Of a stretch of 64,000 nt of DNA, positions 13,239 to 36,555 are shown one piece after another (position 1 is the stretch's first letter; every line of letters starts with the position of its first letter). Both the position numbers and the translations under genes were made by a program. Below the pieces are notes generated by a model, which did no database searches, was not told the origin of the DNA, and worked only from the letters and a program-made list of their open reading frames with translations. This DNA is from a virus, in IMG/VR virus record IMGVR_UViG_3300006931_000005, positions 1-64,000 of that record; one strand, 5' to 3'.

Positions 13239-15376
13239 AACTTTACTCTGCACTCGATACCCCGGCGCTCAATGGGACTACCCAGACACCGATCCGGGAT
13301 TTGACCGGGAGGATCACCGGATATTCAACCAATGGCACCGGCATCTCGACGCCGCTCTATGGCGCATCTCCAGTTAAACCGACCCGCGCCAAGCCACAGC
13401 AAAATTCCGAGGGCAAGTGGATCGACACGAGCACGGGTATGCCGTATCACGGAACGTACACCGACGAGTCGGGCCGCACGCAGTATTACTCGAACGGCCA
13501 ACAGGTGAGCAACGCGGCGGATGTCGGCATCCAGCAGCAGCCTTTCAGCGTTGAGCGCACGCCGAAAAATCCAACGATCAGCGGTGCCATCGACCAGCTC
13601 CAGTCGGAAATCCCGAACACCGGCCTGATGTCGAAGTCGTTCCAGAATTATTTGTCCGAGGCCAGCCGCGTGAACGCCGATGCGAAAGGCCAGCTCGCCA
13701 AAGATCAGGCCGCATACGACACGACCAGCACCGAGAACCGGCTGAACAACGACGTGGCATCGCAGTCGGATGCGCTGCTCGCCAACAACCGGAATTACGA
13801 GCTTGGACAAAATCAGGTTTTGAACGATGTCGGCGCGGCCACCCGGAATTACACGGGCGACCTTACCACCTCGCTCGCCGGGCTGGAAAAAGGCACGGCG
13901 CTCACCGCAGACCAGTTGCGGAAGAACAACGCCGATTATGCAGCGAATCAAAATAATGTTCAGGCGGATGTCGCCAATCAGACCCGTGATTACACGGCTG
14001 GCGAACAGTCGCGCATCAACGATCTCAATCAGCGGGCGGCGACAACCGATGCCAATATGCGTGCGAACAACGCGCAGTATTCCACGCAGCAGCACAATGT
14101 TCAGGGTGAGATCGCCGGACAGAACCAGACCTATTCGACCACGGTGGCTGATCGGCTGAACAAGCTGAAGTCCGATCTCGATACGCAGAACGCGCAGTAC
14201 GAGAAGGCTTCGCAGGCCGTCGCGGATCAGGCGTATGGCGCGGCCCAGAAGCGGAATGATCTTTACCAGTTGACGAGCGGCACGCCGACCTCCGGCAGCG
14301 GCAACCTCGACAACCGGTACATCAAGGCTTATCAGGACATCAACATCCCGCTGCAACAGCAGCTCGCGGATCGCCGCTATCAGCAGGTCAACCAGCTCGA
14401 TGCCGCGCACGCCGGGGCGGACGCGCAGAATTATCAAAACCTGATGTCGCAGTACGCGGGTGAATCCGCGCTCAACTCCGACCTATCCAATCGCGGTATG
14501 TCGCTGGAGCAATACCTTTCCAGTTTGTACGGCCAGAACTACAACGCGAACGAGAACGCGGGCCACAACATTTACGGCGCGAATCTTTCCGTGGACGCCG
14601 GGGCCAGCGCGTTGAATTCCGATCTGGCAAACCGCTCTACGAGCCTCGACCAGTATCTCCAGAGCCTTGGCACGCAGAACTACGGTGCCGAGACTTCCAC
14701 TGCCGGTGCTGTGAACAACGCCCGGCTCGGCCTTGCCAGCACGACGGCTGGAATGAATACGGATTTTGCGAACCGCAACGCGGACACTACGAAGTATCTG
14801 GCCACGACCGACGCGCAAACTGCATCGCAGATTCAGGCGCTCCGGGTGCAGACCGCAGGAATGTCCCGCGCTGCCGCCGCCAGCTATCTCCAGCAGCTCG
14901 CCGTGCCGACGCAGATGGCGCAGCAGGTCTTGGGCAACGACATCGCCAACCAGAGCGCAGTGCAAGGTCTCGACGAGCGGGCGAACGCCTACACGTTCAA
15001 CACGCCCTACGACGCTTCCCGCGTTCCGGCTTCGCCCGGATTTTCTGCGGTCGCACCGCGCAGCTACACGGCCACCTCCGGCGTGAACAACGGCCCGGTG
15101 TCCGGGAATTTGAACAGCCTGCCTTCGGGCTACACCGATACCGCAAGCAGCGGTCAGGTTGGAGCCGCTGGCGCAAATGGCTGGGTGCAGGGATCGGATG
15201 GAAATTATTATGTGCCCGATGCCACGCAGAAAACCGGCTACCGGCTGGTTTGGCAGAAGCCCGCGACTTTGGGTGGCCCTTACAATGGTAACACCTACAA
15301 CGTCGGTGGCCGCACCTACAACTACGGTGAACCTGACAGCGGCAGCGGTGTCATTGATTACGGAGTACGCGCATGA
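13235..15376 (+). CDS. Internal virion / DNA ejection protein, Q/N/A-rich with internal repeats
   Basis: Helical low-complexity composition, SALNSDL.NR..SL.QYL repeats, position before the giant protein. Confidence 0.7.
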   Translation: MKLYSALDTPALNGTTQTPIRDLTGRITGYSTNGTGISTPLYGASPVKPTRAKPQQNSEGKWIDTSTGMPYHGTYTDESGRTQYYSNGQQVSNAADVGIQQQPFSVERTPKNPTISGAIDQLQSEIPNTGLMSKSFQNYLSEASRVNADAKGQLAKDQAAYDTTSTENRLNNDVASQSDALLANNRNYELGQNQVLNDVGAATRNYTGDLTTSLAGLEKGTALTADQLRKNNADYAANQNNVQADVANQTRDYTAGEQSRINDLNQRAATTDANMRANNAQYSTQQHNVQGEIAGQNQTYSTTVADRLNKLKSDLDTQNAQYEKASQAVADQAYGAAQKRNDLYQLTSGTPTSGSGNLDNRYIKAYQDINIPLQQQLADRRYQQVNQLDAAHAGADAQNYQNLMSQYAGESALNSDLSNRGMSLEQYLSSLYGQNYNANENAGHNIYGANLSVDAGASALNSDLANRSTSLDQYLQSLGTQNYGAETSTAGAVNNARLGLASTTAGMNTDFANRNADTTKYLATTDAQTASQIQALRVQTAGMSRAAAASYLQQLAVPTQMAQQVLGNDIANQSAVQGLDERANAYTFNTPYDASRVPASPGFSAVAPRSYTATSGVNNGPVSGNLNSLPSGYTDTASSGQVGAAGANGWVQGSDGNYYVPDATQKTGYRLVWQKPATLGGPYNGNTYNVGGRTYNYGEPDSGSGVIDYGVRA

Positions 15377-16464
15377 TTCTCTACGCATCATCTCCTGATG
15401 GGGTCGCCCAGCAGCAGAATTACTACGACCAGCTCCGAATGAACGCGGAGCAGAACAATGCCGCACGCTTCGACGCGGCACAGGCCCGTGCGCTTCAGGC
15501 CACCCTTCAGCAACGTGAATCCGACCGGCGCTCGCAGGATGCCGCCGATACCTCCGCAGAGCAAGCTGACCAGTTCAACCAGCGTCTTGCCTTCGAGGGT
15601 CAGCAAGGTGATCTGAACCGCGCTTCACACGAGAAGGACGTGAACACGCAGTACAGCTCGACGCACGCCGACCGGCAGGATGCGATCAATCAGCGCGATT
15701 TCGAGCAGGCTCAAAAGCTGGCCATGGCTGGTCAGATTCCGCAGACCGAGGAGAAGGTTGCCTCGCTGTATCCGAATTTCAGCAAAGACCAGATCAAAGT
15801 TTTGGCGGCGGCAAGCTCGCAGCACGCCTTCGACCGTTTCGGCACCGCTCTCGATATGTCGATCCGCGCCGGTAATCCGTTGCCGCTTGAAGCCGTCTCC
15901 AAGATCGTCAACCCGGACTCTCCGATGTACAAGGACGCGATTGATTTTCGCACCGAAAAACTCGCGCCGTTCGTCCAGCAGTTCAAGACCGGTGAGGACA
16001 AGGCCCGCAAGGGAAATTTAGCAGCAAAGATTCAGGCTGATACCGAGGCTGCACCGCTTCCGACTTCATTGAGCGCCAATACCCCTATGTGGGCTGGCGG
16101 TTATGCAAATCCTATCAACTGGGGTATTCGGCTCGGCGAGCATTTGTTCCCGGATATTACCCCAGATAATACAATCCAGCCTCGTGGCGACTGGCAGACG
16201 CGGGCTCCGTCGATTGTTTCATCGCTCCGCGCTGGGAATGATCCGGCTGTAACCACAGACGTTACAACTGGAAAATTTGTGAACACGATGCTCAATCCGA
16301 ACGGTGGCCCGCAAGCACCGGAGCCGATTGTTCCGCCGATCCAGCCCGGCCCGGTCGCTCCTGTCCCCGGCGTTCCGACGGTCACAACTCAAGCCCAATT
16401 TGATGCGCTGCCCAGCGGTGCCATTTACATTGGAAAAAACGGTAAGCAATTTCGCAAGCCATGA
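15373..16464 (+). CDS. Internal virion / DNA ejection protein
   Basis: Q-rich N-terminus; C-terminal QFDALPSGAIYIGKNGKQFRKP motif typical of ejection proteins. Confidence 0.7.
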   Translation: MILYASSPDGVAQQQNYYDQLRMNAEQNNAARFDAAQARALQATLQQRESDRRSQDAADTSAEQADQFNQRLAFEGQQGDLNRASHEKDVNTQYSSTHADRQDAINQRDFEQAQKLAMAGQIPQTEEKVASLYPNFSKDQIKVLAAASSQHAFDRFGTALDMSIRAGNPLPLEAVSKIVNPDSPMYKDAIDFRTEKLAPFVQQFKTGEDKARKGNLAAKIQADTEAAPLPTSLSANTPMWAGGYANPINWGIRLGEHLFPDITPDNTIQPRGDWQTRAPSIVSSLRAGNDPAVTTDVTTGKFVNTMLNPNGGPQAPEPIVPPIQPGPVAPVPGVPTVTTQAQFDALPSGAIYIGKNGKQFRKP

Positions 16465-19400
16465 AGCAAGATGATTTTGGCGGCATCGCATTGGACGATC
16501 CACAATCATCTGACGAATTTGGTGGTGTACCGTTGGCACCTTCCACATCGACAGATGAATTCGGTGGGGCACCTTTAACTTCACCGGCTCCGATTCAAGT
16601 CCCGGCGCAGAGCCAGCCGATGCCGGAGCCGATTCCATTCAAAAACCCGGACATCATCGCGCCCGCGCCGGAAGCGCCGTCGATCCCCGGCGTCTTGGCC
16701 CGCAGCGCGGCCAGAAATGTTCTGCCGACCGCAGGATTTATTGCGGCTGCGCCAGTCGGTCGCTTGGCCGGTGCTGCTGCTGGTGCCCGCACTGGCGCTC
16801 TGCTTGGAGCTCTGGTGCCCGGTCTTGGTGAAACTGGCGTCAGTGAGGGCGTTGGCGCAGTGATTGGTGGCCTTATCGGTATGTTCGCCACTGGAACAGC
16901 GGCGGCAACTGCAACGAAAGCACTTCAGACTGGCGCTGCCGATTACGTCGCACCAGATTCTTTCCTTGGAACGAAGTCGGAGCAGGCGGATATGGCGGCA
17001 CATCCCATCGCCAGTGAGCTGGGAAGCCTTGCCGTCATCGGAAAACCGAATCCGTTCAACATCATCCGGGCTGCACGCACCATCGGGTCGGATACCGGAC
17101 GCGCAGCACTCGCCGATCTGTTGAAAACTGGCGCGACCAAGGGCGGCTATCAGGAATGGGCCAAGACTTACTCGCCAGAGGTGCAAAAATCTGCTGTCAA
17201 CGTGCTCAACGTCGCGCAGGCGGGCGGCATCAACGCGGCTTTCAATGTGTACGACCAGATCAAATCTGGAAATTACAGCGCGGGCGACCTTTTACGGTCG
17301 GCGGCGGAGGGCGCTTTGTTCAATGAGCCTTGGATTCACGCAAAAAATCCTGCGACCGACTCGTTTGATTCCGCACTGACACCCGAACAGGCCACGGAAG
17401 CGAATAAAAACCTCCGGGCGTTGAGCCCGTACCCGGAAACCGGGACGCCGACGAACATCTCGAAGGGGATCGTGGCCGTTCCGGTCGGTCAGCGGACGCA
17501 TATCATCCAAGTGAACGGTCAGGACGCCGCCGTTTTGAAGCACGTCGATGGCGCGGACTTTCAGAAGGCGCAGGACGATGCTGGCGCGTCCGGGTGGGAC
17601 GGATATTTTCTTAAAAAAGACCCGGAGAGCGGCAATCCGACGATCTACATCAACATGGATCACCTGAACCGTCAGGATTCCCTGTTCACGCACGAGTCAA
17701 CGCATTTGCTGGAGGCCATGGGGCTCATCAACCAGCAGCAGATGGACGCCGTGAACACGACCTACGGCCAGATCAAGGTCAAGGACGCCGACGGAAATGA
17801 ATTGCCCATCGCTCAAGAGGTGGCGAACCGTTACGCGAAATTTAATCAGGACAACAGCCGACCGGATCAGACGCCGGAAGATTTTCAGCGCGAACTTTTC
17901 GCCAACATCCTGCAACACTGGCATGAAACCGGGACTGCGCCGAAAGACACCTTCATCAAGCGGGCGATTGATTTCATTTCCGGCATTGCCGGGCTCGATA
18001 AATCGGGCGAACAGCACGCGAGAGACTATATCGCTGGCCGTTTTGAGAAGGCACCTGAAGAAGCCGGAGCTCCGGCGACCGCCGATCTTGTTCCGGCTGG
18101 CGCAGCGAGCGCGGCTCCTTTGCCAAATTTGGCATTTGACAAAAATCCTGTTCCGTCGCAGGCTACGGGTGATGTCAGACAAGCCGAAGAACGAGCAGGA
18201 GCCGGAGTACCACCGCCCGCCGAAGGGGTGGAAGCCGGGAGGCCCGCCGTTGGTGCTCCGCCCGCCCGCCCCGGTGCCGAGCCCAACGCCGCCGTCCAGC
18301 AAGCCGCCAATGCCTACAACGAAGCCGTAGGTCTCGGCCCAACGCAGCCGCATTACGTCCCGGTGGACGAGGCCCGTGCCCGCCAGATCGCCGCCGAGTA
18401 CGAGAAGCTTCCGAAAACCGACCAGTCTCCGCAGACCCTTGCGTCCTACGAACAGCTTGGCAAGGAAATCCAGCAGCAGTGGGATTATGCCCGGAACAAA
18501 ATGGGCATCACGTTCGAGGCTTGGACGAAAGAGGGCCAGCCCTACGCGAATTCCCGCGAGATGGTGAAGGATGTCCGGGACAATCATCACCTTTATTTTT
18601 TCACAGGCGGCGATGAGCATCCGCTGCTCAACGTCAAGGACGCTGACGGGCTCACGCTCAATGACAAGCTCCGGGCTGTCCATGACCTGTTCGGTCATGC
18701 GGCGGAAGATTTTCAATTCGGCGCACGCGGCGAGGAAAATGCGTGGATCAAGCACAGCCAGATGTTCACTCCCCTCGCGCAGAAGGCGCTGACGACCGAG
18801 ACCCGTGGCCAAAACTCGTGGGTGAATTACGGGCCGCACAATTACGAGGCGACCGGTGCCCGGAGAAACATCAAGCCGCAGGATCGTCCGTTTGCGGATC
18901 AAAAAGTTGCCCTGCTCCCTGACTGGGTGCATGATTGGAAAGGCCCGTTAAATGAAAACCAAAAAGCACAGTTCAGCGTCCCGAAACAAGCGCCCGATTT
19001 CACCGACCTCCAGTGGTGGAAGCGTGACAAATCCGAACCGGATGCAGGCGCTCGTGAATCTGGCGCTCCAAGAACTATCGCAGGTAATCCCCGCGAGCTC
19101 GCCCCCGGCGAACGCGACGGCAAAGTAACACTCACGCACTGGTCGAACTTCGACCTTCACGGAAAGGCGATTGATCCGAATTTTTACGGCTCCGGTTATG
19201 CCGGTGAGGAAAAAGGCCGTCGGGTTTTCAAAAAGTCTTGGCTGAACCGCAGCTATTTTGGAATGAAGGGCTACGTCAAAGAAGGTGGCCTTGGCCGATT
19301 CAAGCACAGCGTCACGGTGGACGTGAACAAGCTCTACGACCTGAAGAATGATCCCGACCGGCTGGGTGAAAAAGTCGGCGCGATCTCCGACCGGCTGTAT

Positions 19401-22400
19401 CCGAAGGGTGGCACGCAAGCCGATCTCACCGTTTACGAAAATCTCATCAAGAAGGCCGGGTACATCGGATACTACAACACCGATTATGCGGTGGCCGCGC
19501 TGTTCGACAAGGTGCGCGTCCCGGCCCGCGTTTCAATCATTCACTCGGTTGAAAATTTCAAGCCCGCCACACACAAGGACATGACGCCGGAGGAGCTGCT
19601 GACATCGGCGCAACAGGTGCGGATCAAGGCTCCTTCCGGGACTACCGCATTGCGTGTGATCGACTCGAACGGCAACACCGTGATTCATAACCTGTCGAAA
19701 TTCTCGACCAGAAATCCGCTGTTCAACAAGGATGTGGTGCGTGTCAGCCCGGTATCGGTGAAAACCAGTGGCGTGTACAAGAACCATCCGATCCCAGTGA
19801 AAGGGCCAGTGCGCGTCGAGCCGACGGCGATGTTTTCGGTGCCGAAGAAAAAAGAATTTTTAGATGCGGGCGAGGAATCTCGCAATCCAAGACCTAATGC
19901 TACGACATTGCCGACTCCACCGACAGGGGGGCTTAAAGAAATCGGAGATCGTACCGCATCTAAGTTTAATTACGATAAAAACGTGCTGGATGAAAATGGC
20001 GCGATGAAGCGATTTTATCACGGAACAGGAAAATCGGATCAATTAGTAAAATCTGGAGGATTTAGCTATGAAAAAGCCAGCGACGAATCACTGTATGGAA
20101 AAGGATTATATTTCACTGAAAATCCTGAAATTGCTGGAGGAACAGTCGTAGGCGCTGATTTGGTAAAACGCGGATATGCTGGCAGCTCTGGTGCTGTCAT
20201 TCCGGTCAACATCAATGCCAAAAATCTTTTTGATGATTCGGTCGGTATTCCGAAGCAGCAAGCCGAAAAGCTGGTGCTAAAATATATTGATAAAAACGGT
20301 GAAAACGATGTCCAGCTTAACGGCAAGTATGGATCATTCGCCGCCGCAAAACCGGTAATTAAAGCGCGTGAATCAATAGATAATTCGTTTCGAGAATTGA
20401 TTGATGATTTGGCGCAAGAAAAATCAATTCGGGATTTAGTTAAAAAATATGTTCCAGCCGGAAGTTTATCTGGAAGCCAGACCATAAAAGATCGTTTGAG
20501 CTGGGCTTTTGGTCGGCGCAGTATCCATAACTCAATCGCGTCTGAACAGGATAAGTCGGCTGGTGGAATACGGGCTGAATCAACAGGTGATATTAAGCAA
20601 AAAATTTACCAACTCGATGATCTTGAAAAGCAAAGCAATGCTCTTGATCGTCAAATTTCAGAGGCGATGGGGCAGGTTGGTAAGTATTCTGACTTTGTAA
20701 AAAAAGTAATTGAAAATGTTGATGGCCCTGTGAAATACGGCGATCTTACAGATATTTTTTTACAGGACAAAAACGAGGTCAATAATTTTTTAAGAAATTC
20801 TGGATACGATGGGATTACTCATATTGGAGGAACTATCACAGGTAGCGATCCACATCGCGTTGTAATTGTTTTCGATCCGAAGCAGATTCGCTTTGCGATT
20901 GGCGCAGATCAGCCTTTCTTTTCAGTTCCAAAAAATTCATCTCAAGAGCTGAAAAAATTTCCGCGCACAGCCATCGACATTCTGATGGACGAATCGGTAA
21001 TCAATCCGGTGCGTCCGAAGCAGGTTGCCGAATTCGATCTCATGGGCGATGACGAGGCCGCAGGATCGACCAGCTTCTCCCGCGTGTTCGCGGTTGCCGA
21101 CCACCTTTCCCGCCGATCCGCGCAGCTTGGCGGTGGAGCCCTGCACGAGCTCAACGACACAAACGCCGAGACGCTGGCAAACACTGTGGCGAACGAGGCG
21201 GAGTACGCGATCAACCGCGATCCGAAGGCGATTGGCTGGTACGACCGCGAAATGAAGGCGGCGATGGGCCAGATTTTTAACCGGCACCCGGAGCTGAAGA
21301 AAGATCGCGGCCTGCAATCCGTTTTCAAATCCATTCTGGCGATCACCAACAACGGCCAGAATGTTTTTGCGAATTTCGCGCAGGCGGACAAGCTTTACAC
21401 GGATTGGCGCACGGCGGGCAAGGTGCCGGACGAGGAGAACTGGGGCGGCAAGAGTAAGGGCGCGATCAACGACGGCCTGAAGATGCTCAACCTGCTCATC
21501 GAGAAGCTGGGCACCGCGAATCTGGAAAAGTTTTTGGCCAAGGAATTCAAGGTTGGCGATCTCAAGAGGGCTGGATTCGACATCAGTTCTGAAAACACCG
21601 AGCACATGGCGCACGGCTCGCTGATCTACGGCCCGAAGGTCGGCGGCGGATTCTATCAAAACCTGATCGGCAACCTGAATCCGATCACGATGGATATGTG
21701 GCTCATGCGGACGATCAACCGTATGCGCGGCACGCTCACCGAGCCCAGCCTCACGGCGCTCCCGGATCAGATCGACCGGTTCATCAAGTCGATGAAGAAG
21801 CAGCCGGACAGCGAGGCGATTATCGCGGATGCCAAGCGCGTGAAGCAGCAGATTTTGGACGGCACGCTCGACGTGAACAAGGAGAAGGATGCTCCGGGTG
21901 TGATGCTGACCGCCGCCAAGAATTTGTACGACGATTACCGCAACAGCGGGTTCGTAAAGCGGACGGAGCTCAACCGCAGCTCGAAGCTGATCGCCGAGGA
22001 ATTTTTCGGCATCAACGAAGCGCCGACTTCGGCGTCCGAGCGTGATTTCATCCGCAATGTTTTCGTCCGGGCGCAGGAGAAGTTGAAAGCGAAAAAAATC
22101 GACATCACGAACGCCGACCTGCAAGCCGTTCTGTGGTATCTTGAGAAGGATATTTATGGAAAACTTGGAGCAACCGACCGCCGATCCGCGCCCGCCAGCT
22201 ACTCGGACGCCGCCGCAGCCCTCAACCGAAAACAGCTCGGACTTTTCGATGAAGAACAAGGACGATCAGGCGATCTTCGAGGAGCTGAATCCGCTGGCCC
22301 GGAGATCAATCGCTTCGGTGAAGCTGGCAAGCAGCTTACTGGCGCACAGGCGCTCAAGCGGGTCTCCGTCCAAGAAGCGGAGCCTGTACCGCAGTTCTCG

Positions 22401-25400
22401 GTGACGAAGAAGCTGAAGTTTTACGAAGGCAAACGCTTCGGTGACGTGAAGGACGAGGTGGTGCCGGAAGTTCCGCCGTTTCATCCGCTCGGCGTCGAAC
22501 AATTCAAGCAGGCCCGCGACAGCATCGTGAACCTCGCGCACACGACCGGCGCGATCCAAGCGCGTGGTATGCGGATCAACTTCGCCAACCCTGATCCGGT
22601 CACGGCCAAGCGCCTTGGCGTTGACCAGAACAGCATGGTGGCCCGCGCCATCCACGCGATCTCAAATTCCGACCGGCGCACGGCGAACGAAAACAAGGTG
22701 CTGCTCGCCGACAACATTTTGAACACGGTGAAGCAGGCTGATTTCGTCACCAAGATTCAACGTGATTCAACGGACGGTGATAATGTCGGCCAGTACGGTA
22801 CGGCATTCATCAAGGCTTACGATATTGACGGCAAGAAGGTCTGGCACCTTGTCCAAGTGGACGGCAATGGTGATTTTATCACGCAATTTTCTTGGCCGGA
22901 TACGGAAGCTGAAAATGGACGGGTGATGCGGTCGCAGATTGTGCAGGTTGGTCAGCGGGTTGGTGGTTTGCTAGAGTCGAAGGTTAATCCGCAGGCCGAA
23001 GCCCCGACGCCTTCTAATTTCGCTCCGCCAACCGCTGACCAAGGTGAGATTGCCACATCTGGCAAAGAGGCGCAACCTCAATTTTCAGTAGCCAAGGAGG
23101 AGAAGCGGGCGCAGGTCGGCGGCATCCCTGAAGTCGGTCAGGTGCGCGATACCGAATCCATTTCCGACAACCAAGCGCACATCCGCGAGCGCCTGTTCGA
23201 CGGCACGCAGCCTGTTTCTGACGAGAACACATCCGCCGCGTGGCAGGTATTCGACGAGATGACGGGCAACAACCGCTCCCAGATCGCCGGGCAGTTGAAA
23301 GACGCCTTTGGCGGATCGCGGCTGCTCCTTGGCCTATATAAAGGCGAGGTCTGGAAGTACGCCCGCAAGCTGGCGGTCAACGGTGACGATTCGCTGCTGC
23401 GGGCGATGTACGATCACAGCGAACAGTTTGAGACCCTTGCCGGTGGTGGCGCATCAACCGCTGGCTCCGCGCTCCGGGCCGAGGCCGAGAATGCAAACGA
23501 TCCGGTCAACCGGGCACTCCAGTCCGCCTACGAGACCGAGCGCGAAAATGCGGCCCAGTCCGCCTCCGGCATCGACCGCGAGACCTTCACCGGACTGCTC
23601 AAGCGCCTGCGTAGCCTGAAGCTGACGCCGGACGAGGTTGAGAAGGTGGTCAAGGAGGGCAAGCTGCCGGACGGCAAAACCCTCGAAGAAGCTTTGGACG
23701 AGCTTACGCCGGAATCGAAGGAGGCCATGGCGTTGCTCGACAAGTATCAGCGTTCGCAGACGGAATGGCTGAAGCCGGACGTGAAGAAGTCGATCATCCG
23801 CGTGATCGTGGACGCCGCCATCGGCGAGAACAAGCTGGCGCGTTACGACGAGAAGGATTTTCAGGATCGGTTGTCCACCCGGCTGCAAGAAGCCACGGTG
23901 CCGAAGGAAGTCGCCGACCAGCTCGCGTTCGAGGTGTGGAAAGACAAGGCTGCACGCGAGGCCACCAAGACCGACAAGGCTGTCAAGGCGGATGCCGCGT
24001 TCGAGCAGAACCGGGCGCAGGCCATTCTCGACAAATTGCAATCTGACCAGACCGAAGTGTTCAGTCAGGCCCGGCGCTCGAAGGTTGCTGACATCGTTAA
24101 GGCGTTTTACAAAAACCCTGCGGCGTCCGAAGAAGTGCGAGCCCAGCAGATCGCGCAGCTCGAAAAAGATTTGGTTAATGAGACCGTGAAACCCGCAACG
24201 GCCAAGGAGCTGGCGCGGGAAGCTGGCCAGCGCAAGCTGGTGCTCGAAGCAAACGACCGGCTGGCGCAGGAGAAGGTCACGGCCAACGAAGCGCAGCAGA
24301 CCGCTGAACGCGAGCTCGCAAAATTCGAGGAGAAAAACTCCGGTGTCGAATGGCTGAAGGAAAAAGGCAAACGCGATCAGGTGCTTCAGGCGATTGCCGA
24401 TGCGCTGAAGTCGAAGTCGCCGATCCTCGATGATCCGACACCGCTGGTGAACGAGACCAAGGCGAAGCTCACTGCGCTCGGCGTAGATGAGGCCACGGCG
24501 GGCAAGCTGGCTTTCGAGATCGAGACCGTCCGGCGCACGCAGTTCGCCAACAGCCGCGTGAAGGCGATGGAAAATGCCGCCAAATCTAAAAGCCTGCGGT
24601 CGCTCATCGAATCTATCCTCGAAACCCCGTACCGCGCCCAGTCCGACCCGAAATGGCTGCATGAAACTGCTGTCCGCTGGTTCGAGTCGAACGGTCTCGG
24701 CAAGGATCAGGCTGAAGCCGCCGCCCGGCTGTTCGACAAGGAGTTTAAAGAGGCGTTGGCGCAGGCCAGCACCAAGGTTGCCGAGGCTGAACTGAAGAAA
24801 AAAGTATCGCCCCGCACTTACGATGATCTGGAGCGGTTGATCCGGGCCGGAATTTTCGACCCGGACAAAAACTGGATCGACCAGCTCGCGGCGAAGAACG
24901 GCTGGAAGAAGCCATCGCGTGACCAGATGCTCAAATTGCAGGAATTGGAGCACAAGCTTTCCGATCCTGAATTGTCACCCGAAGAAGTGCGCGACATCCA
25001 AGAGCAGCAGATGCACGTCCTGCGTCACGTCGGCAAAAAAAGGGGCCAGACCCTCCGGGCGCTCGGCGAATCGTTCACTGCCTCGCTGCTGTCCGGCATC
25101 CGCACGCTTACCGTGCAGACCTCGCCGACGGTCATGGCCCTCCGCGATCTGCCGATCATGGCGCTGTCCGATCCGAAGAACGCGATGAATTTTGCGAAGG
25201 CGATGTACAACTCCTTCAAGGCAAATGCGGTCGCGGCGTTCAAATTCGCGTGGATGAAGGACGCCTACGGTTTTCACTTGAGCGAGCTGGAGCACGGCTT
25301 CAACGAGATGAAGCGCATCTCCGAGGAGACGGATCAGGTGGTCAACTCAAAGACCTCGACGCCGGTTGCCAAGGCGCTCGCGTACACCAAGAAGCTCTAC

Positions 25401-27239
25401 GCGCTCCAGCGTTTTGTTTTCCGCAACCTGAATTCCATCGACCAAGCTTCGATGGCTGTCACCCGCGAATGGAAGCTGGCGTATTATTCCGCTTCTGCGT
25501 TCAAAGAAGCCGGGCTGACGAACACGGACATTTCGCAGTTGATCGACCACATCGAGATGCTGCGTAAAAACGAATTCGAGAAAGCCATCGACGCCGGGCT
25601 GGATGCGAACACGGCCAAGGTGCGGGCCAACAGCCGGGTCGCGGATTCCGTCTGGGATTTCGTGAATAACAAGACCGGTCGCAGCGATCTTGCGGATCAG
25701 GTTATCAAGGCTACCGAGAACGACGTGTACTCCACCGTCGGTCGTGTGCCGCACGGCTTGAATTCAACGGATGAAGGCTTCCTGACCCGGTTCTCCGGCT
25801 TTAATCATTTCCTGCAATTCGTGTCCAAGGTTCGCGGCGAAGGCGGGCTCCAGAACATCGGCACCACGGCGCTGATCGGCATGATTAACATTCCATTCCG
25901 CACGACCCGTTATTTTTCTGACTTCTCGCCCTACGGCCTGCTGCGCTACGGTATCTACAAGTACCGGCTGAATCGCGGCAAGGAAAACTTCTGGAAACAG
26001 ACGTATGGCAACGCGCTTCAGGCTCGCGCCCGGCTGTACTCCGCGCTCGCGGGCACCGTTGCCATGGCCGCAGCGACCGCATGGGCGCTCAAGAGCAACA
26101 CGGCGGACGACAAGGCTGGTGACGAGGACTTCGGCCTGTACATCACCGGCAAGGGGCCGAACAACAAGGTGCTGGCCGATGCGTGGGTCAAGCGTGGATT
26201 CAAGCAGTATTCGGCAAACTTTGTTTTCGGTGGCCACATCGTTGCGATTCCGCTGACCCGTGCGGGCGAAGCCCTGATGATGCCCTTCATCCTGCCCGCC
26301 GCGCTCGATGACTATGCGTGGAAATCGAAAGAGGCGGAAGCGGGCGGTCATCCGATCAAGACTCCGATTTCATCCGCCACTGCATCACTGATCGGCGAGG
26401 CAATGTACATGACCGGCCAGTCAGGTATCCTCCAGACTTTTGGCCAGCTCCAGCAGGCGACTGAAAACGGCGGCAGCTTGGGCAAGGCGGCGGTCAAGGT
26501 CGGTGTGAGCGCGGCATCATCGACGGTGTTACCCTTCCGCCAGCTCCTCGCGTCCGTGAGCGAAATGCTTTTCGGAAGCATGGATAATTCAAGCATCAGC
26601 TCGCTGATCGCAAACCAGTTTCCAATCGTGGGCCTGCCGTTTCAGAATCCGGCTGTCAACCGCTTTGGTGATCCGATGTACGACCGTAGCTGGTACGGTC
26701 TGATCGCCCGCACTGGCGTTCCCATCGCTTTTCAGATTTCGCGTTCGCCGGAAAATGAGCGGTTGTACACGACGCTCGTGGAAAAAGGAATTTCGCCACC
26801 GCCGCTGAATCGCTCCGATCTTGAATCGAAGTACGGCGACATGACCGATCAGCAGTTCAAGCAGTTTGCTACCGTTTCAGGTCAGGCGTTGAAGCAGGCA
26901 ATCACAAAGAATCTTCCCGACCTTCAGGGCATGAGCTCGGTGGACGCGAAGAACCTGATGTTCAAGCTGGCGATGCAGGCGAACGCTCAAGCGGCCATGG
27001 CCATTGGCGTGGCTCCGCAGCCCGCAGCCGGTCAGACTGCCGCCGCAGGGTCGGCTGGTGCCGCGCCGTCGAAACAGAAAAAGGCGAAGCTTTCCAAGGC
27101 GTCTAAATCAGTCCGGTCGCTTTACAAGCTGCCGAAGATGAGCCTGTCTCCGGTCGGTAAGAAATCTCACAAATCGACCACGGCCCGGCGCGGTGGATCG
27201 CTCTACGGCGTGCAGCCACGCCACCTCTACGGCACCTGA
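16461..27239 (+). CDS. Giant polyvalent ejection protein (metallopeptidase, two ADP-ribosyltransferase-like domains, glycosylase-fold domain, nuclease-like domain, helical C-terminus)
   Basis: 3592 aa; D(D/E)FGG repeats; HESTH; HDLFGH..RGEENAW; LTHWS...RSYFG; FYHGT...GLYFT...GYDGI...VFDPKQIR; GWYD...GPKVG.FY.NL...TMDMW...LQAVLWY. Confidence 0.88.
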   Translation: MKQDDFGGIALDDPQSSDEFGGVPLAPSTSTDEFGGAPLTSPAPIQVPAQSQPMPEPIPFKNPDIIAPAPEAPSIPGVLARSAARNVLPTAGFIAAAPVGRLAGAAAGARTGALLGALVPGLGETGVSEGVGAVIGGLIGMFATGTAAATATKALQTGAADYVAPDSFLGTKSEQADMAAHPIASELGSLAVIGKPNPFNIIRAARTIGSDTGRAALADLLKTGATKGGYQEWAKTYSPEVQKSAVNVLNVAQAGGINAAFNVYDQIKSGNYSAGDLLRSAAEGALFNEPWIHAKNPATDSFDSALTPEQATEANKNLRALSPYPETGTPTNISKGIVAVPVGQRTHIIQVNGQDAAVLKHVDGADFQKAQDDAGASGWDGYFLKKDPESGNPTIYINMDHLNRQDSLFTHESTHLLEAMGLINQQQMDAVNTTYGQIKVKDADGNELPIAQEVANRYAKFNQDNSRPDQTPEDFQRELFANILQHWHETGTAPKDTFIKRAIDFISGIAGLDKSGEQHARDYIAGRFEKAPEEAGAPATADLVPAGAASAAPLPNLAFDKNPVPSQATGDVRQAEERAGAGVPPPAEGVEAGRPAVGAPPARPGAEPNAAVQQAANAYNEAVGLGPTQPHYVPVDEARARQIAAEYEKLPKTDQSPQTLASYEQLGKEIQQQWDYARNKMGITFEAWTKEGQPYANSREMVKDVRDNHHLYFFTGGDEHPLLNVKDADGLTLNDKLRAVHDLFGHAAEDFQFGARGEENAWIKHSQMFTPLAQKALTTETRGQNSWVNYGPHNYEATGARRNIKPQDRPFADQKVALLPDWVHDWKGPLNENQKAQFSVPKQAPDFTDLQWWKRDKSEPDAGARESGAPRTIAGNPRELAPGERDGKVTLTHWSNFDLHGKAIDPNFYGSGYAGEEKGRRVFKKSWLNRSYFGMKGYVKEGGLGRFKHSVTVDVNKLYDLKNDPDRLGEKVGAISDRLYPKGGTQADLTVYENLIKKAGYIGYYNTDYAVAALFDKVRVPARVSIIHSVENFKPATHKDMTPEELLTSAQQVRIKAPSGTTALRVIDSNGNTVIHNLSKFSTRNPLFNKDVVRVSPVSVKTSGVYKNHPIPVKGPVRVEPTAMFSVPKKKEFLDAGEESRNPRPNATTLPTPPTGGLKEIGDRTASKFNYDKNVLDENGAMKRFYHGTGKSDQLVKSGGFSYEKASDESLYGKGLYFTENPEIAGGTVVGADLVKRGYAGSSGAVIPVNINAKNLFDDSVGIPKQQAEKLVLKYIDKNGENDVQLNGKYGSFAAAKPVIKARESIDNSFRELIDDLAQEKSIRDLVKKYVPAGSLSGSQTIKDRLSWAFGRRSIHNSIASEQDKSAGGIRAESTGDIKQKIYQLDDLEKQSNALDRQISEAMGQVGKYSDFVKKVIENVDGPVKYGDLTDIFLQDKNEVNNFLRNSGYDGITHIGGTITGSDPHRVVIVFDPKQIRFAIGADQPFFSVPKNSSQELKKFPRTAIDILMDESVINPVRPKQVAEFDLMGDDEAAGSTSFSRVFAVADHLSRRSAQLGGGALHELNDTNAETLANTVANEAEYAINRDPKAIGWYDREMKAAMGQIFNRHPELKKDRGLQSVFKSILAITNNGQNVFANFAQADKLYTDWRTAGKVPDEENWGGKSKGAINDGLKMLNLLIEKLGTANLEKFLAKEFKVGDLKRAGFDISSENTEHMAHGSLIYGPKVGGGFYQNLIGNLNPITMDMWLMRTINRMRGTLTEPSLTALPDQIDRFIKSMKKQPDSEAIIADAKRVKQQILDGTLDVNKEKDAPGVMLTAAKNLYDDYRNSGFVKRTELNRSSKLIAEEFFGINEAPTSASERDFIRNVFVRAQEKLKAKKIDITNADLQAVLWYLEKDIYGKLGATDRRSAPASYSDAAAALNRKQLGLFDEEQGRSGDLRGAESAGPEINRFGEAGKQLTGAQALKRVSVQEAEPVPQFSVTKKLKFYEGKRFGDVKDEVVPEVPPFHPLGVEQFKQARDSIVNLAHTTGAIQARGMRINFANPDPVTAKRLGVDQNSMVARAIHAISNSDRRTANENKVLLADNILNTVKQADFVTKIQRDSTDGDNVGQYGTAFIKAYDIDGKKVWHLVQVDGNGDFITQFSWPDTEAENGRVMRSQIVQVGQRVGGLLESKVNPQAEAPTPSNFAPPTADQGEIATSGKEAQPQFSVAKEEKRAQVGGIPEVGQVRDTESISDNQAHIRERLFDGTQPVSDENTSAAWQVFDEMTGNNRSQIAGQLKDAFGGSRLLLGLYKGEVWKYARKLAVNGDDSLLRAMYDHSEQFETLAGGGASTAGSALRAEAENANDPVNRALQSAYETERENAAQSASGIDRETFTGLLKRLRSLKLTPDEVEKVVKEGKLPDGKTLEEALDELTPESKEAMALLDKYQRSQTEWLKPDVKKSIIRVIVDAAIGENKLARYDEKDFQDRLSTRLQEATVPKEVADQLAFEVWKDKAAREATKTDKAVKADAAFEQNRAQAILDKLQSDQTEVFSQARRSKVADIVKAFYKNPAASEEVRAQQIAQLEKDLVNETVKPATAKELAREAGQRKLVLEANDRLAQEKVTANEAQQTAERELAKFEEKNSGVEWLKEKGKRDQVLQAIADALKSKSPILDDPTPLVNETKAKLTALGVDEATAGKLAFEIETVRRTQFANSRVKAMENAAKSKSLRSLIESILETPYRAQSDPKWLHETAVRWFESNGLGKDQAEAAARLFDKEFKEALAQASTKVAEAELKKKVSPRTYDDLERLIRAGIFDPDKNWIDQLAAKNGWKKPSRDQMLKLQELEHKLSDPELSPEEVRDIQEQQMHVLRHVGKKRGQTLRALGESFTASLLSGIRTLTVQTSPTVMALRDLPIMALSDPKNAMNFAKAMYNSFKANAVAAFKFAWMKDAYGFHLSELEHGFNEMKRISEETDQVVNSKTSTPVAKALAYTKKLYALQRFVFRNLNSIDQASMAVTREWKLAYYSASAFKEAGLTNTDISQLIDHIEMLRKNEFEKAIDAGLDANTAKVRANSRVADSVWDFVNNKTGRSDLADQVIKATENDVYSTVGRVPHGLNSTDEGFLTRFSGFNHFLQFVSKVRGEGGLQNIGTTALIGMINIPFRTTRYFSDFSPYGLLRYGIYKYRLNRGKENFWKQTYGNALQARARLYSALAGTVAMAAATAWALKSNTADDKAGDEDFGLYITGKGPNNKVLADAWVKRGFKQYSANFVFGGHIVAIPLTRAGEALMMPFILPAALDDYAWKSKEAEAGGHPIKTPISSATASLIGEAMYMTGQSGILQTFGQLQQATENGGSLGKAAVKVGVSAASSTVLPFRQLLASVSEMLFGSMDNSSISSLIANQFPIVGLPFQNPAVNRFGDPMYDRSWYGLIARTGVPIAFQISRSPENERLYTTLVEKGISPPPLNRSDLESKYGDMTDQQFKQFATVSGQALKQAITKNLPDLQGMSSVDAKNLMFKLAMQANAQAAMAIGVAPQPAAGQTAAAGSAGAAPSKQKKAKLSKASKSVRSLYKLPKMSLSPVGKKSHKSTTARRGGSLYGVQPRHLYGT

Positions 27240-30325: not shown

Positions 30326-30579
30326 AAATTAAACAGATAGATTGGCAAGAAAGGCCAAGCGAGCGTTACCCAAATTCAAAACTTTGGGTTGGTAGCGTAG
30401 GTGGTAAATTTATTTTTGGCGCTACAAATTCAATGCAAGACGGAAGCGGTCAGTGGGGACTCCAGTTTTTCATCGGCCTACATCCAGATGAAAACGTGAA
30501 GTGGTTTCCAACTGTTGAAAAAATGAAAGAGGCGGCAACATTGCTTCTTGAAAACCACGTCAAAGGATTGATCGAATGA
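30322..30579 (+). CDS. Hypothetical protein
   Basis: Coupled ORF, AT-richer than its neighbours. Confidence 0.6.
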   Translation: MKIKQIDWQERPSERYPNSKLWVGSVGGKFIFGATNSMQDGSGQWGLQFFIGLHPDENVKWFPTVEKMKEAATLLLENHVKGLIE

Positions 30580-31574
30580 AATATCTTGTAACAGGCGGAG
30601 CCGGTTTTATCGGCAGTCATCTGGTGGACGCGCTGCTCGCGGACATCAATACCACCGAGGTCAGGATCATCGACGATTTCTCGTCCGGCAAGATCGAGCA
30701 CCTGTACCAGCACGGCGCGAACGTGGCCGATGGTCGTCTGAAGATTCACAAATTTGATCTGGTTCAACCCAACCCGGCAACCCATGTATGCTTCAAAGAC
30801 ATTGATTGTGTTTTCCATCTGTCTGCTAATCCCGATGCCCGTCTCGGAATCGAGAATACTCATTTGGATTTGGAGCAGGAGGTACTGGCTACCTACAACG
30901 TGCTTGATGCCATGCGTCGGGCTGGTTGTAAGAAGATCATTTTTTCTTCCTCCGGCACGGTCTATGGAGACATCGGCACAACTCCGGCGAAAGAAGGTAT
31001 GGGAGAACGTCACCCGATTAGTCTCTACGGGGCAGGTAAAGTTTCCAGCGAAGCCTTCATCGCAGCTTATTGCGGAACTTTCGGCTTTTCGTCGGTGATC
31101 TTCCGTTTCGGCAACGTCGTCGGTGAGCGCACCACTCACGGCTGCATTTTTGATTTCATGGCCAAGATCAAAAAGCACCCGGACAAGTTGGTGGTGCTCG
31201 GCAATGGCAAGCAATCGAAGCCTTATATCTACGTCCGCGACATTGCTGCTGGGTTGATCCACGGCCTTACCATGCTTACAGGCGGAGGCATGGGGCCGGG
31301 AAGCTGTTTTCCGTTCAATCTAGCACCGTCTGGTGCTACAACTGTTCAGTTTATCGCCGAGGAGCTGGTTCGTCAGATGGGGCTCGAAGGAAAAATCGAG
31401 ATCGTTTACGGCGAATCAGAATCAGGCTGGGCTGGCGACGTGCCACACTCACGCATGGACGCATCGAATCTTGAATTGTACGGATTCAAGCCCAGCCTGA
31501 CCTCCGACGGCGCGGTGATGCGGGCGATCTACGAAATCTTGAACTACAAGCAACCCGAACCTCCGAAAGAATGA
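30576..31574 (+). CDS. NAD-dependent nucleotide-sugar epimerase/dehydratase (GalE-like)
   Basis: TGGAGFIG, FSSS, YGAGK catalytic motif, RFGNVVG. Confidence 0.93.
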   Translation: MKYLVTGGAGFIGSHLVDALLADINTTEVRIIDDFSSGKIEHLYQHGANVADGRLKIHKFDLVQPNPATHVCFKDIDCVFHLSANPDARLGIENTHLDLEQEVLATYNVLDAMRRAGCKKIIFSSSGTVYGDIGTTPAKEGMGERHPISLYGAGKVSSEAFIAAYCGTFGFSSVIFRFGNVVGERTTHGCIFDFMAKIKKHPDKLVVLGNGKQSKPYIYVRDIAAGLIHGLTMLTGGGMGPGSCFPFNLAPSGATTVQFIAEELVRQMGLEGKIEIVYGESESGWAGDVPHSRMDASNLELYGFKPSLTSDGAVMRAIYEILNYKQPEPPKE

Positions 31575-33517: not shown

Positions 33518-35788
33518 ATGGGAGTAACAGCAATCTTGGTGGCAACTGGTCGGATCGAACGCTTGAACGAGGCGATAGCCAGCTTTCTGGATCAGGATTT
33601 GGAGGACAAGCAACTCATCGTTTTTAACTCTTGCTTCCGGCAGACGTTGAGCGGCGACTTTCCGAATGTCATTTTCATCAATGCGAAGGAAATGACGATG
33701 CCAATGCGGTGCAAAAACATCTCCATCGAAAACGCGAAGCACCCGATCATCGTTTTATGGAGCGAGATTGATTACTACCTGCCCGGCCACCTTTCGCGTG
33801 TGGTAAAAAACATGGAAGGCCGTGATTGGTGCTGGTTCGAGCGTGAATTCCAGTCGGATCATCGCCGCCACCTCCGGGTTGAGCAGGGCTCTGAATCTGT
33901 GTTCTCATTTTCCCGCACAGCATGGCGCAAGGTCGGCGGCTTTCATCCCGGCATCAACGGCGCGGACGACCGTAACTTCATCGCCCGTGTCACGGGTGAA
34001 TGCGAGGGCCAGAAGATTCCCACCTCGCCCGCCGAGATCACCTTCATTCGCGTTGGAAACGAAGAAGCGCGGGCCGCGTGCAAGCCTACAATCAAGAGCG
34101 GGCCGATCAAGGTTGAGCCGCTTTTATCCCGCGACTATCGCAGCCAGATTCTCCAGTTTCTTTCCGGCAAGATTGAGAACAAAGTCTGCGTCGTTGAGCT
34201 GGGCCGGTTCGGTGATCTCATCAACATTCTGCCCTATCTGCGGATGATCCACGAGCTGTACGATACGCCCGCCGTCTGCGTCAGTCAGGAATTTGTTTCG
34301 CTGTTCGACGGGATTTCCTACGTCAAGCCGTGGCCGCTGCCGATCAAGAACGAGGAGCTGGGCCAAGCCCTGTCGCTGGCCAAGGAGGAATTCTCCATTG
34401 TCATCAACGCGCAAATCTGGGGCCGTGGCTGGTCGCAGCGCCGGACTACCGAAAGCTACAACAAGGAGAGCTGGGCCAACTGTGGCATCCTGAATCTTTT
34501 TGAGGACAAGGAGATCAGACCCGCGTTCGACCGGCGTGATCCGGCGCGTGAAGCGCAGCTCATCAAAACGGTTCTTACTTCTGACGTTGACTCGCTCGTA
34601 TCTCCGGGCATCACCGAACCCTTGCTGGTCGCCAGCAGGCCGGTGATCTTGGTGAACACCAGCAAGGCCATCAGCTCGCCGTGTCCAACGTGTGATGTCG
34701 TGCTCGACGAGATCAGGAAGCTCTGGGGTGTTGATAACATTGTCGTTGATCTGGCCAAGGTCACGGCGGAAAGAATTTACGATCTGCTCGGACTGTTTGA
34801 AATCTCATCGTGCCTCGTGTGCATCGACAGCGCGTTCCTTCATCTCGCGCAGGCAGTGGACATCGGGATCGTGGCGATCACTAACCCAAAGCCGTGGGCA
34901 GGTACAATCGTCCGCCGAAATTTGGTGGCGCAGACCGACTACGAGAAGCTGGACATGGCCAAGATTCACGAGGGCATTGCAGCCTGCCTAAACATTGGGC
35001 CTTTGAGGATCAAAACGCCGGAGATTCTGAAGCCGTTGCTGTACCGGGCCTTCAACTTGATCGACAAGTTTGAGGATTCGGACGAGATGGCGATCCGCCG
35101 CAAATCGCACGCCGTAAAATCACAGGATGATCTTTACGAGAACGGCAGGCTGACCCCGATCCATGTCTGGGATTACCCGCGCACGGCGGACAAGGAGCTT
35201 GGCGATCCGCGCAGGCTTCCGTACCTGAAAGACCTGTTCCAGAAATTCTTGGACGTGTCTGAAAACGCCAATGATGTCTGCATCTGGTCGAACGACGACA
35301 CGATCCTGCATCCAAACATCGTGGAGTACGCAAAATTTCATTGCGCGGTGTACGGCGCTTGCTCGTTCTTCCGCAGCGAGTTTGGGCCGAACCCTCCGTC
35401 ACTTGAATCAAGGCCGGAAGATTACGCCCGGCAATCGCGTGGCCGTCACATTGGGCGTGATGCGTTCGCCTTCAGCCGTAGTTGGCTGCATGAGAATTGG
35501 GACGACATACCGGACTTCGTGCTTGGTGCGTCTGGCTGGGATTTGTGCATGGCGGCGATCATCCGGCTGACCTTCGGCATCAAGACGACCGGCGCAAACC
35601 TTGGCGAGCAGATTTTCCCGGCAGAGCCGCCGAACGGGTATGTCGGCCACATCGCGCACAAGTCGCTCTGGAATCTGGAGCACACGGTTAATTCGCCGTC
35701 GAACGTCTGGAACGGAAAGCTGTTTCGCAAGTGGTCGGAGAAAAACGACATGGCGCTTCAGTTTACGCCGGAAAATAATCTCGCATGA
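33518..35788 (+). CDS. Multidomain glycosyltransferase (GT2-like, GT9-like, GT-A-like)
   Basis: LNEAIASFLDQD; LGRFGDLINILP...CIDSAFLHLA; LPYLKDL...WSNDD. Confidence 0.82.
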   Translation: MGVTAILVATGRIERLNEAIASFLDQDLEDKQLIVFNSCFRQTLSGDFPNVIFINAKEMTMPMRCKNISIENAKHPIIVLWSEIDYYLPGHLSRVVKNMEGRDWCWFEREFQSDHRRHLRVEQGSESVFSFSRTAWRKVGGFHPGINGADDRNFIARVTGECEGQKIPTSPAEITFIRVGNEEARAACKPTIKSGPIKVEPLLSRDYRSQILQFLSGKIENKVCVVELGRFGDLINILPYLRMIHELYDTPAVCVSQEFVSLFDGISYVKPWPLPIKNEELGQALSLAKEEFSIVINAQIWGRGWSQRRTTESYNKESWANCGILNLFEDKEIRPAFDRRDPAREAQLIKTVLTSDVDSLVSPGITEPLLVASRPVILVNTSKAISSPCPTCDVVLDEIRKLWGVDNIVVDLAKVTAERIYDLLGLFEISSCLVCIDSAFLHLAQAVDIGIVAITNPKPWAGTIVRRNLVAQTDYEKLDMAKIHEGIAACLNIGPLRIKTPEILKPLLYRAFNLIDKFEDSDEMAIRRKSHAVKSQDDLYENGRLTPIHVWDYPRTADKELGDPRRLPYLKDLFQKFLDVSENANDVCIWSNDDTILHPNIVEYAKFHCAVYGACSFFRSEFGPNPPSLESRPEDYARQSRGRHIGRDAFAFSRSWLHENWDDIPDFVLGASGWDLCMAAIIRLTFGIKTTGANLGEQIFPAEPPNGYVGHIAHKSLWNLEHTVNSPSNVWNGKLFRKWSEKNDMALQFTPENNLA

Positions 35789-36555
35789 CACCCCTGCACA
35801 TTTTCACGCTGGCGCTGGACGCCATCGACTTCCTGCCGTGGCAGCTTGAGACCTTCGAGGCGCTGAATCGCCCGTGGACGTGGCATATCATCACCGGAGT
35901 CGCCGACAATGTGGCGGATACAAAATGGTGCTCCAAGATCGCGCCACGGTTAAGCCGTGACGGTACGGAAGAATGGCTGGCGAAGCACGCGAAGCATCCG
36001 AACATCCGCGTTTATAGACGCCAGCTCTGGCCGGGCAAGACCGCCATGTGCAATGCGGCCACCTCTAAGATCAACGAGGACTGCGTGCTCATGCAGATCG
36101 ACGCGGACGAAATTTGGACTGCCGGGCAGCTCGAAAAAATCTGCAAACTATACGAGTCCGGTAGCTACGACCGCATCAGATTTCTGTGTCGGTACTTTGT
36201 AGGCGAGAGCTTGGTCGTGTCATCCAACTGCGGCTGGGGGAACAAGCCCGGCGAGTGGAGCCGGTCGTGGCTGTTCCGGCCCGGTATGTTTTTCACCTGT
36301 CACGAGCCGCCCGTGCTGGAGGGCTGTGGACGGCGTGAGATGTCACGCGAAGAATCGAGCGGTCATGGTCTCGTTTTCGATCATCTGGCGTATGTGATGG
36401 AGCGTCAGGTGGCGTTCAAGGAAAAGTATTACAAGTACGCCGGGGCGGTTGATGGCTGGCGTCGTTTACAGGCGCAGACAGAATTCCCGTGCAGGCTGAA
36501 GCCGTTTATGCCGTGGGTGGACGACGGTACGATGGTGGACAAGATCAAAGCCTGA
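35785..36555 (+). CDS. Glycosyltransferase, GT2-like
   Basis: SRDGT.EWL...LMQIDADEIW...HEPP. Confidence 0.8.
   Translation: MTPLHIFTLALDAIDFLPWQLETFEALNRPWTWHIITGVADNVADTKWCSKIAPRLSRDGTEEWLAKHAKHPNIRVYRRQLWPGKTAMCNAATSKINEDCVLMQIDADEIWTAGQLEKICKLYESGSYDRIRFLCRYFVGESLVVSSNCGWGNKPGEWSRSWLFRPGMFFTCHEPPVLEGCGRREMSREESSGHGLVFDHLAYVMERQVAFKEKYYKYAGAVDGWRRLQAQTEFPCRLKPFMPWVDDGTMVDKIKA

Follow-up and report, generated by a model that had tools for sequence, protein, structure and literature searches.

Polyvalent proteins are widespread weapons of phages and plasmids, and whether, where and by what they are cut has been a matter of prediction since 2017, when autoprocessing by their metallopeptidase (MPTase) domains was proposed with the sites left unnamed (Iyer, Burroughs, Anand, de Souza, Aravind 2017, PMC5512222). 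The words linker, boundary and interdomain occur 0 times each in the text of that paper, which describes no junction or cleavage motif. Here we analyse a giant protein encoded by an uncultured ~74-kb phage, in a stretch of 64,000 nucleotides (positions 1 to 64,000 of IMG/VR record IMGVR_UViG_3300006931_000005, flagged as virus; this whole stretch is the window in what follows), in which a short peptide, FSVxK, recurs at the joints between successive modules, downstream of a zincin-like HExxH domain of the same chain.

The protein belongs to the polyvalent class, being phage-encoded and combining in one chain several unrelated effector or enzymatic domains that are found again in proteins of different architecture. 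It shares with the described members the giant multidomain organization, an ADP-ribosyltransferase (ART) domain of the ART-PolyVal family, mobile cassettes and an HExxH domain, and differs from them in that a defined, carrier-specific junction peptide can be mapped and in that both its body family and its HExxH domain lack a Pfam match. Other counterparts are P1 DdrB/DarB, the N4 virion RNA polymerase gp50 and phi24B gp47, very large proteins that travel in the head and are ejected along with the DNA; phi24B gp47 (2811 residues, with LPD domains and a MuF-C peptidase) has been detected in virions (bioRxiv 10.64898/2026.04.10.717836). By analogy with the polyvalent class and with phi24B gp47, the window protein may likewise be packaged in the virion and delivered together with the DNA. 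DdrB, which has an MPTase domain, is processed, N4 gp50 is packaged uncut, and no repeated junction peptide has been reported for DdrB/DarB, N4 gp50 or phi24B gp47. Unlike these proteins, the window protein has a body without detectable similarity in cultured phages.

Two further groups of systems are comparable in how module borders are marked. Picornavirus 3C cuts between Q and G, T4 gp21 at L/I-x-E and phiKZ gp175 at S/A/G-x-E; as in these systems, a short boundary peptide recurs here and a protease is offered by the same genome or chain, whereas here the cleavage is one that we infer, the candidate protease is a zincin inside the substrate chain, and the site varies by carrier. VENN of CdiA and PxxxxDPxGL of Rhs proteins are similar in being short peptides at the joint between a carrier and an exchangeable module, with recombination breakpoints on the peptide; the differences are that the present peptide has five to six copies per protein instead of one, that the modules are N-terminal to the body, and that there is no DNA-level conservation around the motif. 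A junction peptide that tracks its carrier gives exact candidate cut sites, down to residues and neo-N-termini, supplies a rule by which thousands of unannotated giant proteins can be divided into modules, and explains clean payload exchange, including two independent low-GC ART insertions. If the cleavage is real, it would amount to a protease-site system comparable to the polyproteins of RNA viruses, but in tailed phages.

The FSVxK peptide and the modules it delimits

The giant protein consists of an N-terminal region, an HExxH...E domain, a train of cassettes and then a conserved 1,385-residue C-terminal body. The original prediction, made from the DNA letters, had placed five FSVxK copies and an HESTH signature in it, and all were found at the predicted coordinates, in frame in one open reading frame (ORF). 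The features are as follows.

16461..27239, + strand: giant ORF, polyvalent protein, 3592 residues plus stop; start codon ATG overlapping the stop codon of ORF 15373-16464 upstream
17421..18047, + strand: zincin-like HExxH...E domain (residues 321-529); HESTH (residue 411) at 17691-17705, Glu478 at 17892-17894
18279..18971, + strand: phrog_3170-type domain (residues 607-837), a mobile cassette (E 5e-24)
18972..18986, + strand: junction motif 1, FSVPK (residues 838-842), in QFSVPK at 18969
18972..19832, + strand: cassette 1 (residues 838-1124), with two sub-domains, 838-1021 and 1023-1124
19833..19847, + strand: junction motif 2, FSVPK (residues 1125-1129), in MFSVPK at 19830
19833..20918, + strand: cassette 2 (residues 1125-1486), ART-PolyVal ADP-ribosyltransferase (Pfam PF18760) with a ~170-residue insert
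20919..20933, + strand: junction motif 3, FSVPK (residues 1487-1491), in FFSVPK at 20916
20919..22394, + strand: cassette 3 (residues 1487-1978), with a DUF7178-like lead (Atlas features, 0.95-0.96)
22395..22409, + strand: junction motif 4, FSVTK (residues 1979-1983), in QFSVTK at 22392
22395..23081, + strand: cassette 4 (residues 1979-2207), with a weak PBECR/MuF_C/LPD3 lead (0.87, a lead only)
23082..23096, + strand: junction motif 5, FSVAK (residues 2208-2212), in QFSVAK at 23079, directly before the conserved body
23082..27236, + strand: conserved C-terminal body (residues 2208-3592), the carrier part common to all relatives

The five copies, starting at residues 838, 1125, 1487, 1979 and 2208, compare with 0.039 expected from the protein's own composition (Poisson p ~7e-10); for the plain FS dipeptide the enrichment is too small to be useful. 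No other ORF of the window carries FSVxK, and in a six-frame scan of the 64-kb window the sole further occurrence is a minus-strand one that lies antisense to ORF 15373-16464 (+ strand).

As a check on the motif, it had been proposed to align homologues and see where domains are gained and lost; in such alignments both indels and the ends of BLAST high-scoring segment pairs fall on it. The closest full-length relative, P0007 (P-numbers denote homologous or other carrier proteins, P0001 being the window protein; P0007 is encoded on an IMG/VR contig, locus L001), has neither cassette 2 nor cassette 3, and in it an additional ART cassette precedes the body. When P0001 and P0007 are aligned globally, indels of 854 and 177 residues each run from the F of a motif copy up to the residue preceding the F of the following copy. 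At the DNA level, the single copy in one genome resembles the other genome's left copy through F-S and its right copy from V-x-K on, and this left-to-right switch of similarity places the joint inside the 15-nucleotide motif. Across eight proteins of the clade, 60 of the 201 internal segment-pair ends lie no more than 12 residues from a motif, against a null mean of 13.8 and a null maximum of 28 in 2000 trials, the ends not being mutually independent. The role of the motif as a delimiter of exchangeable cassettes is well supported.

Base composition adds to this picture. Cassette 2 is a low-GC island, with a GC content of 0.418 and a GC content at third codon positions of 0.34, against 0.56-0.60 and 0.58-0.76, respectively, in the other segments, and the GC change-points at 19933 and 20961 are 100 and 42 nucleotides from motifs. 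The ART cassettes of P0007 and P0003 are also low in GC and occupy positions other than that in the window protein; the presence of low-GC ART cassettes at different junctions suggests repeated acquisition from low-GC donors. The ART-PolyVal cassettes of three related phages (window 19833-20918; L001 13907-14437; L006 2211-2807) have GC contents of 0.418, 0.444 and 0.467, compared with 0.52-0.60 in the rest of each gene.

According to the original prediction, the motifs fall exactly between domains. They do stand where homology blocks end or begin: the phrog_3170-type domain stops at residues 820-837, at motif 1; the ART-PolyVal match ends at residue 1482, five residues ahead of motif 3; the block that cassette 4 shares with its orthologue in P0007 (residues 1216-1439) spans exactly 1979-2207; and homology in the conserved body begins at about residue 2213. 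The converse is not true of every border, since the one between the MPTase and phrog_3170-type domains (~529-607) and a sub-boundary at ~1022 have no motif. The modules themselves are mobile. The phrog_3170-type domain also occurs in the unrelated carriers P0203 and P0202, and in P0029 this domain and those of cassette 1 stand in the opposite order, each bounded by P0029's own motif, while the two sub-domains of cassette 1 occur separately in other proteins and recur in unrelated ART-PolyVal proteins. Near residue 1031 (residues 1029-1044, window ~19545-19590) a decayed junction can be discerned, where P0001 reads ENFKPATHKDMTPEE and P0166 has AQFSVSNHEDMTPEE; hence the mini-domain 1023-1124, fused in the window protein, stands as a cassette of its own with FS flanks in P0166.

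Concerning the nature of the cassettes, the second of two ART-like labels is the only one among the predicted domain labels that could be verified. Cassette 2 scanned alone matches PF18760 with 41.6 bits, the gathering cut-off being 31.2, over profile positions 1-136 of 140; in the scan of the whole protein just the first half was matched, at 29.4 bits, because of the ~170-residue insert. Cassette 1, which had been labelled ART-like as well, gives an hhalign probability of 0.8% against ART with a trimmed, shallow alignment, leaving that label unsupported. For cassette 3, predicted to have a glycosylase fold, the Atlas lead is DUF7178, and no homologue of this cassette was found in Pfam, the PDB or the protein set examined; for cassette 4, predicted to be nuclease-like, the only lead is to PBECR/MuF_C/LPD3. 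Neither of these two labels was confirmed. Searching residues 601-2207 against PDB sequences with phmmer gave no match.

The conservation of the motif is at the level of the peptide. The five window copies are written with different codons (TTCAGCGTCCCGAAA, TTTTCGGTGCCGAAG, TTTTCAGTTCCAAAA, TTCTCGGTGACGAAG and TTTTCAGTAGCCAAG), the six copies in L001 and L006 again differ, and over the eleven copies of these three genomes Ser is encoded by AGC, AGT, TCG, TCA or TCT, thus drawing on both serine boxes. There is no direct DNA repeat over the motifs, nor any DNA identity among the copies beyond what the amino acids force. As judged from these sequences, selection is acting on the peptide and not on the DNA. 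Differing codons and the lack of a direct repeat mean that the motif is not a DNA recombination site, and a recombination hotspot at the motif is rejected, the nucleotides not being conserved. The proposal that the linker also serves as the recombination joint is therefore unsupported as worded, the motif providing no DNA homology; what it marks is where viable recombinants join.

Variants of the peptide among carriers

The residues of the junction depend on the protein that carries it, with the following variants.

FSVxK: carriers P0001, P0003, P0007 and P0166
FSA, six copies: carrier P0005
AS[VI]AK, four copies: carrier P0013
RFSTP, six copies: carrier P0029
FALPQK, one FA variant (QFALPQK): carrier P0008

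In a distant clade the junction peptide is [RK]MAAEP. Repeated copies of FMPK, FKP or Q[FA]xP do not occur in this protein family. The identity between motif copies is 0.77 within a protein and 0.52 between proteins, a difference reached by 0 of 5000 label permutations, although relatedness inflates the figure. The same module can be followed from one carrier to another: the orthologous ART tail ends in NPDIR-FSVPK, -FSASS, -FSVSK, -ASVAK or -FSVAK depending on the carrier, and the phrog_3170-like cassette has FSVxK at its flanks in the window protein, RFSTP in P0029 and, on either side, LQFRPE in P0202. P0104 has an ART cassette between its HExxH domain and its body, flanked by RKMAAQ and RRMAVE. 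Copies that are alike within a protein and different between proteins point to one shared reader per carrier.

Part of the motif has a counterpart in the ART-PolyVal family at large. A tail of the form SATGNxGxFDxxNPDIR[FY][SA] was found in 66 distinct instances in 120 unrelated ART-PolyVal proteins, ~10x chance, most of them closing an ART copy and some following another domain; we found no paper mentioning the NPDIR[FY][SA] tail in the literature. The F-S of FSVxK is the F-S that ends the ART-PolyVal (PF18760) tail in P0003, P0005, P0007 and P0166. The window protein departs from this tail in that NPDIR is kept in 0 of its 5 copies, the conserved part is shifted downstream (S-V-x-K), and the motif follows non-ART modules. 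A different pre-body junction, QPMDLFGDLAPSG, preceded by DMF[AS]xPP, is present in P0006, P0009-P0011, P0014, P0024 and P0055; we presume that it resembles the QxxLF pentapeptide that binds the beta clamp.

The HExxH domain and the proposed reading of the junction

An HExxH domain had been predicted upstream in the same chain, and it is indeed there, conserved and co-varying with the motif. H411, E412, T414, H415 and E478 are invariant in seven homologues. The AlphaFold2 model of the domain, with a core pLDDT of 77-92, has a beta-sheet followed by a helix that starts with HExxH, and E478 lies in a later helix, so that the putative metal ligands in the model are of gluzincin type, HExxH in a helix being followed by a Glu further along the chain. 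Homology extends to the HExxH domains of distant family members (hhalign probability 95.9%, E 5.6e-9, 117 columns). With the model as query, Foldseek gave no match at E<=0.001; VIA-align gave a best Z of 4.3, with the YbeY-like 1oz9 at 3.9 and anthrax lethal factor at 3.1 over 127 aligned residues. Neither search brought out a clear fold.

The domain and the junctions go together in several respects. HExxH lies 117-190 residues upstream of the junction between payload and body in 24 of the 41 HExxH-bearing relatives, and [FM][SA]-type junctions are associated with HExxH (odds ratio 3.8, p 0.003, from a crude regular expression without phylogenetic control). A THExTH-type domain is found in seven proteins of the set, six of which have several FS-type junctions and the last of which, P0008, has its single FA variant. 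The close relative P0004 has neither the HExxH domain nor any junction motif, and P0006 has neither the domain nor an FS-type motif.

The reading that we favour, to which we give a chance approaching even, is that the motif is a processing site cut by the chain's own zincin-like domain. In the scheme we infer, which takes in virion packaging, cleavage, the protease responsible and the bond it would cut, x-F-S-V-x-K would lie in or at the edge of a flexible linker and set off each cassette, and would be kept by protein-level selection; a single factor would read all copies, most probably the chain's own peptidase domain. The cut would be N-terminal to Phe; a hydrophobic P1' preference is typical of zincins. 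Cutting would release the cassettes, the ADP-ribosyltransferase and others, and separate payload from body, either in the capsid or after ejection into the host. As cassettes move between carriers, only recombinants joined at a junction would keep both modules and a readable site, which would make breakpoints pile up on the motif. AlphaFold2 models the P0007 ART cassette with a mean pLDDT of 82.6; the motif that precedes the cassette is disordered (~50), the one that follows it lies where pLDDT falls from ~83 to ~52, and such exposed positions would, on this model, be accessible to a protease.

Extended to other carriers, this leads to a more tentative proposal, to which we assign something like a one-in-three level of belief: a carrier-specific polyprotein grammar in double-stranded DNA phages, in which each giant carrier would bring a zincin co-evolving with its own junction peptide (FSVxK here; FSA, ASVAK, RFSTP, [RK]MAAEP and QFRPE elsewhere), and cassettes between two junctions would be packaged, ejected and released as free effectors. 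Were this true, phages could exchange payloads with no need to evolve delivery or processing anew.

Several observations weigh against processing by the HExxH domain. For residues 301-600 there is no Pfam family at E<=5, and therefore no peptidase model, which means that the domain is not filed in any named peptidase family; its assignment as a peptidase is a model-aided one that draws on HExxH, the conserved Glu and the topology, lethal factor at Z 3.1 being the best zincin match. Shared ancestry confounds the association between domain and motif, and P0014 has three FS motifs without HExxH. Likewise, 13 of the 30 proteins with two or more NPDIR[FY][SA] tail copies lack HExxH, and the existence of such tails in proteins without it implies that the reader need not be this peptidase. 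N4 virion RNA polymerase, ArdC and TraC1 have MPTase domains and yet are delivered uncut (PMC5512222). Finally, the lineage is uncultured, neither the giant gene nor the body having a match in 50,697 phage records by megablast and tblastn.

It should be noted that GRFEKAP (residues 526-532, window 18036-18056) lies 117 residues past HExxH, where the peptidase-like domain ends in disorder. The corresponding sequence in relatives is AGKF[QEK], and in distant clades the junction [RK]MAAEP stands at an equal distance; GRFEKAP may be a degenerate, protease-proximal site. A possible experimental proxy is gp60 of the cultured Pseudomonas phage F116 (NC_006552 54250-59199; L004 4450-9399), a 1650-residue protein with two HExxH motifs whose ART domain is flanked by QAFSR (521) and DILFSR (683); a profile hidden Markov model of the body showed no similarity to it.

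An alternative that we find doubtful, though worth serious weight, is that the motif is never cut and acts as a linear motif or structured hinge by which a non-proteolytic partner (a capsid-interior protein, the portal or a chaperone) threads or docks the modules of a single chain. Homogeneity within a protein implies a common reader and does not imply a protease, and, as modelled for the P0007 ART cassette, the residues that immediately precede the C-terminal motif copy would pack on the ART domain (pLDDT ~83). Delivery without cutting also has precedent in several MPTase-bearing polyvalent proteins (PMC5512222). A docking motif, however, need not mark every module boundary, nor need it follow HExxH at a fixed distance. 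Moreover, the hydrophobic-small-x pattern fits the P1'-P2' preferences of zincins.

Cleavage by another protease, either a head-maturation protease of the phage or a host enzyme, with the HExxH domain acting as an effector or in some other role, appears unlikely. T4 gp21 and phiKZ gp175 do cut packaged internal proteins at short consensus sites, and both the FS motifs of P0014 and the NPDIR[FY]S tails found apart from HExxH would be natural under this explanation. Against it, no recognisable prohead protease was seen among the window ORFs scanned with Pfam or PHROGs, FSVxK is restricted to the giant ORF whereas head proteases usually also cut capsid or scaffold proteins, and the variant of the motif goes with the HExxH-bearing carrier protein.

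We consider it very unlikely that the motif is a functionless remnant at cassette ends (e.g. ...NPDIRFS) that was spread as linkers duplicated or recombined. In the 120 unrelated proteins, ART-PolyVal copies usually end with the FS of ...NPDIRFS, and some FS copies in the clade are exactly this tail; in the window protein, however, NPDIR has gone from every copy and four copies follow non-ART modules, the residues are kept though their codons differ, and the same cassette takes the motif variant of its carrier, which hitch-hiking does not predict.

Self-cleavage between Phe and Ser by an N-to-O acyl shift, as at the HFS sites of Nup98 and PIDD, would need no protease and has in its favour the F-S dipeptide as the invariant core in the window protein, but we reject it as scarcely credible: known cases need a dedicated folded domain and a His before the Phe, neither of which is present here, the upstream residues and domains vary in the family, and variants lose the Ser (FALPQK in P0008; [RK]MAAEP) or the Phe (ASVAK).

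The giant gene, its relatives and its surroundings

The start of the gene has a feature of its own.

16470..16580, + strand: three short N-terminal repeats D[DE]FGG (residues 4-40), seen in the sequence

Homologues have triplets of other kinds, AFDDL x3 in P0007, PFDxAE x3 in P0003, DDPLG x3 in P0166 and PxDYT x3 in P0028, and the presence of such triplets at their N-termini favours the ATG at 16461 rather than the shorter start given in the database (P0002, 3539 residues). The repeat triplet may be a packaging or anchoring signal.

A search with the C-terminal body gave 240 relatives at E<=0.001, all metagenomic, and no Pfam model was matched by this family. Relatives of the giant ORF lie on contigs of ~70-78 kb. 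No relative of the giant gene or the body was found in GTDB genomes; a protein-pattern scan of IMG/VR gave no match with a single sequence as query and 3 loci with an alignment as query. The helical part of the body has ~100-residue repeats marked by (Q)TEWLKP, observed in P0008, P0012 and P0041, and some relatives have three copies; the window protein, with QTEWLKPDVKK at ~23760, has fewer such repeats than the relatives with three.

The giant gene is placed between a replication module and a structural module. By PHROGs the window encodes a DnaB-like helicase, an exonuclease, a tail protein and a virion structural protein, and it also has an HNH endonuclease. The stretch that separates the giant gene from the structural genes includes two segments, 30576-31574 and 35785-36555, that encode an NAD-dependent sugar epimerase/dehydratase and a family-2 glycosyltransferase; these enzymes may modify DNA or the cell surface.

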